Of a DNA stretch of 64,000 nt, positions 12,904 to 14,876 are shown in pieces. Source of the stretch: Polyangiales bacterium (GTDB taxonomy: Bacteria; Myxococcota_A; Polyangia; Polyangiales; JADJQN01). Position 1 is the stretch's first letter. The number at the start of each line of letters is the position of its first letter. The stretch covers positions 1 to 64,000 of the forward strand of contig CAXNJO010000009.1 of assembly GCA_964202905.1 (NCBI GenBank). The letters run 5' to 3'. A program made the position numbers and the translations under genes. Below the pieces are notes generated by a model that worked only from the letters and a program-made list of their open reading frames with translations, was not told where the DNA came from and ran no database searches.

Positions 12904-14061
12904 GTGCCCCTCGACTTCACGCTCCGCGGCGTCGATCCCGGTTCACGCGCACGCCGGGGCACGCTGCACACGCGGCGTGGGCCCGTCGAGACGCCCGTGT
13001 TCATGACCGTCGGCACCCGCGCGACGGTCACGGGGCTCACGCCCGACGAACTGCGCGCGTCGGGCGCGCAGATGCTCCTCGGGAACACGTACCACCTGCT
13101 GCTGCGGCCCGGGGTCGAGCTCTTCCGCCGCGTCGGGGGTCTGCACGCGTTCATGGACTGGAGCGGACCGCTCCTCACGGACTCGGGCGGCTACCAGATC
13201 TTCTCCCTGCCGGGCGACCGCACGATCGGCGAGCGCGGCGCGCGCTTCCGCAGCTACGTCGATCAGCGCGTGCACCTGCTCTCGCCGGAGCGCTCGATCG
13301 AGATCCAGACCGCGCTCGGCTCCGACGTGATGATGGTGCTCGACGAGTGCGTCGACTCCACCGCGGACACGCCGACGGTGCGCGCGGCGATGGAGCGCAC
13401 GCACCGCTGGGCGCTGCGCAGCCTCGCGGCGCGGCGCGACGAGACCCAGGCGCTCTTCGCCATCATGCAAGGTGGTGTCGTCCCCGAGCTTCGAAAGGCG
13501 TCCGCGGCCTTCCTCACCGCGCAGCCCTTCGACGGCTTCGCGCTCGGCGGGCTCGCCGTCGGCGACACGCGCGCCGATCGCGAGGCGATCACCGCGCTCG
13601 CCGCCGACCTTCTCCCGCGCGAGAAGCCGCGCTACTTGATGGGCGTCGGGACGCCCGCGGATCTGCTGCAGGCGATCCTCGCGGGCGTCGACATGTTCGA
13701 CTGCATCCTGCCCACGCACCTCGCGTGGCAGGGCACGGCGTTCACGTCGACCGGGCGCGTGAAACTCTCGCGCGCCTACCACGCGGAGGCCGACGTGCCG
13801 CTCGACGCGACGTGCCGCTGCCCGACCTGCGCGCGCTGGTCACGGGCGTACCTGCACCACCTCGTGAAGTGCGGGGAGCCGCTCGGGCCGCGGCTGCTCT
13901 CCACCCACAACCTCCACCACTATCACGCGCTGATGGCCGACGCGCGCGCCGCGATCGAGGCCGGCGACTACGCGCGCTGGGCCCGCGCGAAGCTCGACGC
14001 GATCGATCGCCACGAACACAGCGGACGGCGGATCGGCGACGCGGACGGCGCACGCCCATGA
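12904..14061 (+). CDS. tgt: tRNA-guanine transglycosylase (TGT) family protein, divergent
   Basis: [53 protein letters not shown] and a CxCxxC...H zinc site. Confidence 0.93.
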
Positions 14062-14876
14062 GCCACGAGGTCGTCACGACGCGCGGCGGCGCGCGCGCCA
14101 TCCTCGATCACACGACGGGCGAGGTGATGCACCCCGTCGTCGGCCCCCTCGTCGAGTCGGTGCGACTCTACGTCGAGCCCTCGCGCCTCGCCGCGCGGCT
14201 CTCGGAAGGCGGCCCCGAGCCGCTCGTGCTGCTCGACGTCGGGCTCGGCGCCGGCGCGAACGCGCTCGCGGCCTGGCGCGTCTCGGAATCGCTCCCCCAC
14301 ACGGCGCGGCCGCTCACCATCCTGAGCTTCGACCGCACGCTCGACGCGCTCGCCCTCGCGCTCGCGCACGCGGACGACTTCGCGCTCACGGGGCCCGCGG
14401 GCGACGCGGCGCGCGGGCTGCTCGCGGCGGGTGCGCACGACACGGCGCGCACACGCTGGCGCATGCACCTCGGCGAGCTGCCCGGCGCGCTCGAGGCCGC
14501 GGCGCCCGCGGGCGCGGACGTCGTCTACTGGGATCCGTTCTCACCACGCGCGAACCCCGGCCTCTGGGGCTGCGCGGCCTTCCAAGCGCTGCGCACGCGC
14601 TGCCGCGCCGGGTGCACCGTGCACACGTACGGGGGCGCGACGGCGACGCGCGCGGCGCTGCTGCTCGCGGGGTTCGACGTCGGGCTCGGCCCACCCATCG
14701 GCGCCGACAAGCGCGGCACCTGCGCGACCGTGCCGCCGTCCGCGCCCGATGCGCCCCTCGACGCGCGCTGGCTCGCGCGGCTGCGGCGCTCGTCCGCGCC
14801 CTTCCCCGCGGACGCACCGCCGGATGCCCTCGCGACGCTCGCGCGGCTGCCCCGGCTCGCGGCGCCGCAGGACTGA
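14058..14876 (+). CDS. Stand-alone MnmC/MnmD-like SAM-dependent methyltransferase
   Basis: ATGA overlap with tgt. Motifs [20 protein letters not shown] (SAM motif I), [14 protein letters not shown] and TY...RAALLLAGF. Confidence 0.85.

Follow-up and report, generated by a model that had tools for sequence, protein, structure and literature searches.

The locus and its two genes

The subject of this analysis is a pair of overlapping genes in a 64-kb stretch of Polyangiales DNA with a G+C content of about 75%; the stretch at its full length is called the window below, and it belongs to contig C9 of its genome assembly. The first gene encodes a paralogue of tRNA-guanine transglycosylase (TGT), which we call TGT-M, and the second a methyltransferase related to MnmC2. 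An initial annotation, made from the letters alone, had placed the two open reading frames (ORFs) and their ATGA overlap at 12904..14876 and had read the pair as a candidate pathway of base exchange plus methylation. Both ORFs and the overlap lie where it put them, and while the observation itself is confirmed, the interpretation is partly supported. The features of the pair are as follows.

12904..14061, + strand: TGT-M, a paralogous tRNA-guanine transglycosylase of 385 amino acids with a GTG start, assigned from the ORF, family matches, alignment and trees
14058..14876, + strand: MnmC2-like (PF05430, DUF752-type) S-adenosylmethionine (SAM)-dependent N-methyltransferase of 272 amino acids, assigned from family matches and the alignment to 3vyw
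14058..14061, + strand: ATGA, shared by the stop codon of TGT-M and the start codon of the methyltransferase, which suggests translational coupling

An alternative in-frame GTG at 12811 would give a longer TGT-M, and the start at 12904 is favoured because homologues open with the same MxLxF...SRARRG. TGT-M matches the Pfam TGT family (PF01702) with E = 1e-138, and the methyltransferase matches PF05430 with E = 9.7e-16 and 58.2 bits, above the cut-off of 22. On NF033855, the NCBI equivalog-domain model for MnmC2, the methyltransferase reaches 66.6 bits and fails the cut-off of 136. The pair is built from two known enzyme families, in a combination without a described function. The accessible part of one preprint gives the MnmC2-TGT fusion a single sentence, as one of four COG4121 fusion types, and proposes no function for it there (bioRxiv 10.1101/2023.12.21.572861). 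We found no study of the pair in the literature on TGT paralogues, preQ1 methyltransferases, Anaeromyxobacter queuosine and DUF752/MnmC2. A prediction of the complex of TGT-M with the methyltransferase (score 0.00) speaks neither for nor against an interaction.

Linkage, fusion and co-occurrence in Myxococcota

A scan of species-representative genomes returned 351 relatives of the methyltransferase, of which 80 loci were kept, with the following arrangements.

Single fused ORF: 15 of 80 loci
Split genes with a 4-nt [AG]TGA overlap: 50 of 80 loci, a count biased upward because the script picked the start codon closest to the TGT stop
Split genes with another short overlap: 4 of 80 loci
Small gap or unclear: 5 of 80 loci
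Genes more than 1 kb apart: 2 of 80 loci
TGT absent within 6 kb: 4 of 80 loci, all from one lineage

In 76 of the 80 loci, a TGT paralogue is the methyltransferase's partner. The gap of 1.0-1.5 kb at L070 and L071 holds only small lipoprotein-like ORFs on the opposite strand. Fused forms are also abundant as single entries, with at least 393 proteins of ~670 amino acids in the protein collection, the TGT part N-terminal. All 80 loci come from Myxococcota (Sandaracinaceae, Polyangiaceae, Sorangium, Nannocystis, Anaeromyxobacter and some Myxococcus), and the pair is known so far only from this phylum, a range that rests on the named carriers, since 10 deep-branching fused representatives have no taxon assignment. 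The named carrier records include Anaeromyxobacter sp. Fw109-5 (the source of one of the fused proteins), Sorangium sp. So ce1014, Nannocystis exedens DSM 71 and some Myxococcus.

Co-occurrence tells the same story at the level of whole genomes. Among 41 Polyangiales genomes, the methyltransferase is found in 7 (the window genome and 6 of its 40 relatives), and the same 7, and only they, show two full TGT matches; among the 34 genomes without the methyltransferase, 33 have one TGT and 1, which is 86% complete, has none. In two of the carriers (G009 and G032) the genes are unlinked, yet a TGT with the signature residues of the clade described below is present in both. A 301-genome sample of the phylum supplied 5 further carriers, one of them with two copies of the pair; each has a TGT adjacent or fused to every methyltransferase copy and at least one other TGT. 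Given these co-occurrence and fusion counts, the pairing is not due to chance, and the pair is a conserved unit of function that takes the form either of overlapping genes or of a single fused protein. The coupling noticed in the initial annotation is conserved, and often goes as far as fusion.

The same counts bear on the chief alternative, which is that the methyltransferase is an ordinary stand-alone MnmC2, making 5-methylaminomethyl-2-thiouridine (mnm5s2U) at position 34 by the ammonium route, as in Aquifex, with the TGT paralogue acting independently or as an aid to anticodon-loop binding. An ordinary MnmC2 would leave its strict co-occurrence and fusion with TGT-M unexplained: the second TGT is there in 7/7 Polyangiales carriers and 0/34 non-carriers, the extra TGT recurs in the 5 carriers from the wider sample, and the methyltransferase is absent from 34 of the 41 relatives. 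On the other side, the preprint that mentions the fusion names TGT among the fusion partners of MnmC2 in the context of mnm5s2U synthesis (bioRxiv 10.1101/2023.12.21.572861).

Several observations at individual loci stand apart from this. In the lineage of L013, L017, L044 and L059, the methyltransferase now adjoins efflux genes of the resistance-nodulation-division type; G032, the sole genome of that lineage checked, has its signature TGT-M on another contig. The Polyangiales genome G305 carries two TGT-M/methyltransferase pairs (C3:1559380-1561310 and C2:57141-59071) together with a canonical tgt. Many stand-alone methyltransferases bear the Joint Genome Institute label "queuine tRNA-ribosyltransferase", while the NCBI label of the fused forms is Tgt; the former misnaming probably arose by transfer of a name from the fusions.

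Clustering of neighbouring ORFs across the 80 loci revealed no conserved third partner, the next family occurring in at most 10, and neither that clustering nor the flanking ORFs of the window include an MnmC1-like neighbour. In the window, the seven flanking ORFs gave Pfam matches to Big_9, GATase1_like/MG2, DUF4159 and ArsA-like domains or had no domain, as in the case of the ORF at 11980-12786. Immediately downstream of the pair, 14941-18256 on the - strand encodes two proteins unrelated to it, a large one with GATase1_like/MG2 and one with DUF4159. The remark of the initial annotation that no queuosine gene is nearby holds, with queA on contig C8 and queG on contig C11; there is no que or sec gene among the seven flanking ORFs scanned, though no family search was aimed at yajC or secD. 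An Rfam scan of the whole window gave no family match, and thus no preQ1 riboswitch was found.

A TGT clade apart from the canonical Tgt

The window genome (5.68 Mb in 19 contigs, 94.5% complete) also has a second tgt, and this one is canonical: it lies on contig C8 directly downstream of queA and reads ATVK, GGYSVGE and PTRNARNG at the diagnostic motifs. The initial annotation had proposed looking for such a gene, and its presence counts in favour of the idea. In the assembly the canonical gene carries a one-base frameshift just past its CxCxxC zinc motif (contig C8 ~48736, L125:8737). However, contigs from three public metagenome runs, belonging to two studies, are one base shorter exactly at L125:8737, and among their 714 other letters one of these contigs has only 3 differences from the genome. 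Because the metagenome contigs lack one base exactly there, an error of assembly or a variant of the strain most likely accounts for the frameshift, and the canonical tgt is probably intact.

For the relation between the two TGTs, the best 150 representatives at 50% identity were sampled, and the methyltransferase domain is present in 25 of these. In a FastTree tree of 195 rows, with 9 short rows dropped, a single clade of 57 rows (Shimodaira-Hasegawa-like support 100, branch length 0.38) takes in all 24 fused rows that were kept and every sampled TGT that came from beside a methyltransferase. Canonical TGTs of the Polyangiales, the copy from the window genome among them, are in a different clade. 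A quick IQ-TREE tree, built from 71 rows, again separates TGT-M from the canonical proteins (support 99 in the Shimodaira-Hasegawa approximate likelihood-ratio test, branch length 0.34). Thus the separateness that had been suspected for the window copy is strongly supported in both trees.

Alignment with HMMER to the Zymomonas TGT gives K52T, E235D, R286H, R289W and N290Q in the window protein, which keeps DSGGYQ, DEC, QG, GGLAVG, DMFD and the CxCxxC...H zinc site; the residue mapping that the initial annotation had done by eye is borne out. Across the clade, D102, D156, C158, Q203, G230, L231, A232, V233 and D280 are retained. The site comparison set 134 canonical rows against 57 TGT-M rows in Zymomonas numbering, and since the groups were partly drawn by the state of positions 286 and 289 before those residues were counted, a circularity that tells against our reading of the signature, the independent label of the clade is fusion or adjacency to the methyltransferase. 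The positions that distinguish the groups are these.

Position 52: canonical K in 92%; TGT-M R or T
Position 122: canonical V; TGT-M A
Position 161: canonical variable; TGT-M S
Position 240: canonical mostly M; TGT-M R in 96%
Position 286: canonical R in 100%; TGT-M A, H, T or S
Position 289: canonical R in 100%; TGT-M Q or W (R in 5%)
Position 304: canonical N or Q; TGT-M R in 93%
Position 310: canonical D; TGT-M S, A or Q
Position 382: canonical variable; TGT-M D

What marks the family as a whole is that Arg286 and Arg289 are lost while Arg240 and Arg304 are gained. Of the substitutions singled out in the initial annotation, the loss of the two arginines extends to the whole clade, but K52T and E235D are confined to a Polyangia/Anaeromyxobacter subclade, the deeper fusions having K or R at position 52 and, in most cases, E at 235. 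In the Zymomonas enzyme, Arg286 and Arg289 presumably contact U35. Beyond one passage that places Arg286 beside the ribose-34/phosphate-35 pockets, we found nothing usable in the literature on the roles of these two arginines. Lys52, according to a preprint, is salt-bridged to Glu339' in the other subunit of the dimer and touches U35 through van der Waals contact (bioRxiv 10.1101/2020.09.01.277731), in agreement with the U35 contact that had been claimed. As a side observation, TGT-M proteins share a conserved C-terminal IDRHEH-like motif (13990-14020 in the window), which in fusions stands just ahead of the linker; the Asp at position 382, present in 92% of the clade's rows, lies within it.

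Set beside the Tgt of the Zymomonas mobilis/E. coli type (TIGR00430, PF01702), TGT-M is of the same fold family (358 bits to the Zymomonas chains) and shares with it the catalytic Asp102 and Asp280, the pocket residues D156, C158, Q203, G230, L231 and V233, the zinc site and most residues of the dimer interface. It differs in forming a clade of its own, in lacking the Arg286 and Arg289 that 134/134 canonical rows have, in gaining Arg240 and Arg304, in lying away from queA, in coexisting with a canonical Tgt, and in its coupling to a methyltransferase. Where Lys52, Arg286 and Arg289 are the invariant residues of Tgt on the anticodon-loop side, the window protein has T52, H286 and W289.

One might suppose that TGT-M pairs with the canonical Tgt in a dimer without being catalytic itself, or in a regulatory role, as QTRT2 does with QTRT1 in eukaryotes, and brings the methyltransferase to the queuosine-family tRNAs. 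We consider this very improbable. The QTRT2 subunit has lost catalytic residues, whereas TGT-M keeps all of them, and the pocket as well, throughout the clade; moreover, solved QTRT2 chains match at 1e-21, as against 1e-106 for catalytic TGTs. The points on its side concern the interface: W326, Y330, H333, E339 and F92 are retained in the window TGT by the Zymomonas alignment, and Lys52, which bridges to the mate's Glu339', is altered (for the roles of these residues, bioRxiv 10.1101/2020.09.01.277731).

A DNA target is less probable still, and we give it hardly any credence. The proposed logic of the pair has a close parallel there, in that DpdA2 and DpdM of Vibrio phage VH7D act in turn, the transglycosylase inserting preQ1 and the methylase then making methyl-preQ1, and mdPreQ1 does exist in phage DNA (PMC10516641). 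But DpdM is a phage-borne DUF3109 protein with metal clusters that acts on DNA (PMC10516641), and the window methyltransferase is a Rossmann-fold, MnmC2-like PF05430 protein, for which neither viral_contigs nor 50,697 phage records yielded a homologue. Nor is a dpd or restriction gene conserved beside the pair in the 80 loci, and TGT-M scores as a bacterial tRNA Tgt, zinc subdomain included. As a DUF3109 protein, DpdM was rejected as the family of the methylase.

The methyltransferase and a candidate function for the pair

The best solved relative of the methyltransferase is the stand-alone MnmC2 of Aquifex aeolicus (3vyw, phmmer 2.6e-15), which acts on 5-aminomethyluridine (PMC3527978). With that enzyme and the N-terminal domain of E. 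coli MnmC it shares the PF05430 Rossmann domain, a DUF752-type N-terminal segment and motif IV, its WDPFSP aligning with HDAFSP of the Aquifex protein; the Asp-x-Phe retained there is a feature of amine N-methyltransferases (PMC3527978). Its chemistry would be expected to be the same, SAM-dependent methylation of a primary aminomethyl group on a wobble-type base. It differs in its distance from the Aquifex enzyme, in falling below the NCBI cut-off, and in having a TGT as its partner instead of MnmC1.

The last point is sharpened by the true MnmC2 genes of other Myxococcota, which score 133-210 bits on the MnmC2 model, are next to or fused with a flavin adenine dinucleotide (FAD) oxidoreductase of the MnmC1 type, and are 26-30% identical to the window methyltransferase. 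They are represented by the five loci below; no TGT lies in the 7-8 kb fetched.

L144, L145 and L146 (G066, G226 and G167): true MnmC2, adjoining MnmC1-like genes
L147 (G183): true MnmC2, fused with an MnmC1-like gene
L148 (G045): true MnmC2; the scan of neighbouring genes covered L144-L146

The window methyltransferase is a PF05430 subfamily distinct from the true Myxococcota MnmC2, and in this phylum the MnmC2 fold appears to have two alternative partners, MnmC1 or TGT-M.

These facts bear on an ordinary MnmC2 from both sides. In its favour are the Aquifex match with motif IV intact, and the genome itself, in which MnmA is present and the methyltransferase is the sole PF05430 gene; neither MnmM nor MnmL/YtqA was found in this 94.5% complete assembly. 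With MnmA present and no other candidate found for the step from 5-aminomethyl-2-thiouridine (nm5s2U) to mnm5s2U, an ordinary MnmC2 role is possible. Opposed to it are the score of 66.6 bits against a cut-off of 136, the fact that true MnmC2 proteins of the same phylum partner MnmC1 and not TGT, and the retention in TGT-M of a 7-deazaguanine pocket and catalytic Asp residues, for which an ordinary MnmC2 role offers no reason. Taking these together with the co-occurrence counts, we judge an ordinary MnmC2 to be unlikely.

The partnership with MnmC1 suggests what the partnership with TGT-M may be for. MnmC1 exposes an aminomethyl group on uridine, and MnmC2 methylates that group. TGT installs preQ1, which is to our knowledge the only other base in RNA that bears an aminomethyl group. 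We therefore propose, at what we would call even chances, that salvaged preQ1 is placed by TGT-M at an RNA site outside the canonical one and that the methyltransferase then N-methylates its aminomethyl group. TGT-M would most likely be an active base-exchange enzyme, one that still binds a preQ1-like 7-deazaguanine, the base being salvaged by the organism. Given its rebuilt RNA-recognition surface, the guanine that it exchanges would probably lie outside the U33-G34-U35 loop on which the canonical Tgt acts. Once the base is in place, its aminomethyl group would be N-methylated by the MnmC2-like enzyme with SAM as donor, just as MnmC2 methylates the one exposed on uridine by MnmC1, to which it is fused. 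This would yield 7-(methylaminomethyl)-7-deazaguanosine and not queuosine. The anatomy of the locus, the second canonical tgt, the separate clade, the fusions, the co-occurrence and the residues kept and lost are shown; which base is inserted, into which RNA, in what order the enzymes act and what they make is inferred. As for the idea of base exchange plus methylation in the initial annotation, all computable checks came out in its favour; its product (N-methyl-preQ1) and target RNA belong to the inferred part.

The genome yielded neither QueC nor QueF, the weak matches being MnmA and FolE, and the supply of 7-deazaguanine would therefore depend on salvage; a YhhQ-type transporter and a PTPS/QueD-like gene are present. 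A real QueF occurs in 1-2 of the 41 Polyangiales genomes, and the order appears to salvage preQ1.

Salvage is also an argument for the two steps in reverse, in which free preQ1 would be methylated first and the N-methylated base inserted afterwards by TGT-M. The dependence on salvage, with YhhQ present and QueC and QueF not found, suits this order, as does E235D in the subclade, since position 235 adjoins the peptide facing the aminomethyl group of preQ1. Most deeper fusions, however, have E235 and an unchanged pocket, and the loss of Arg286 and Arg289 would be left unexplained. In addition, the characterised PF05430 enzymes use a tRNA-bound substrate (PMC3527978). We think the reversed order quite improbable.

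Several results weigh against insertion of preQ1 by TGT-M followed by its methylation. TGT-M passes TIGR00430, the NCBI equivalog model for Tgt, with 432.3 bits against a cut-off of 306.75. The nearest solved structure to the methyltransferase is an enzyme of the uridine pathway, and the genome offers no other candidate for the conversion of nm5s2U. The missing QueC and QueF belong here too, with the proviso that, at 94.5% completeness, absences from the genome count as "not found". Finally, the aragorn list of tRNAs in the genome (63 calls, several of them likely false) singles out no target tRNA. A more specific prediction, to which we give somewhat less than even chances, is that these bacteria make an undescribed nucleoside, 7-(methylaminomethyl)-7-deazaguanosine, at a guanine outside U33-G34-U35, for example at the wobble position of other tRNAs with GNN anticodons in very GC-rich genomes. 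N-methylation of preQ1 has a precedent in phage DNA, by an unrelated enzyme (PMC10516641).

One gain is in the databases, where fused forms filed as Tgt and stand-alone methyltransferases filed as queuine tRNA-ribosyltransferase can now be given correct names. The wider meaning concerns Tgt itself, an enzyme seen as serving one purpose only and as bound to U-G-U as its target. We know of no 7-deazaguanine modification of bacterial tRNA other than queuosine. A second TGT with an intact preQ1-type pocket, a rebuilt RNA surface and a fused N-methyltransferase predicts a new nucleoside and possibly new target tRNAs, a prediction that is directly testable because cultured carriers exist. If it is true, the Myxococcota would have a second 7-deazaguanine pathway in tRNA, running parallel to that of queuosine.

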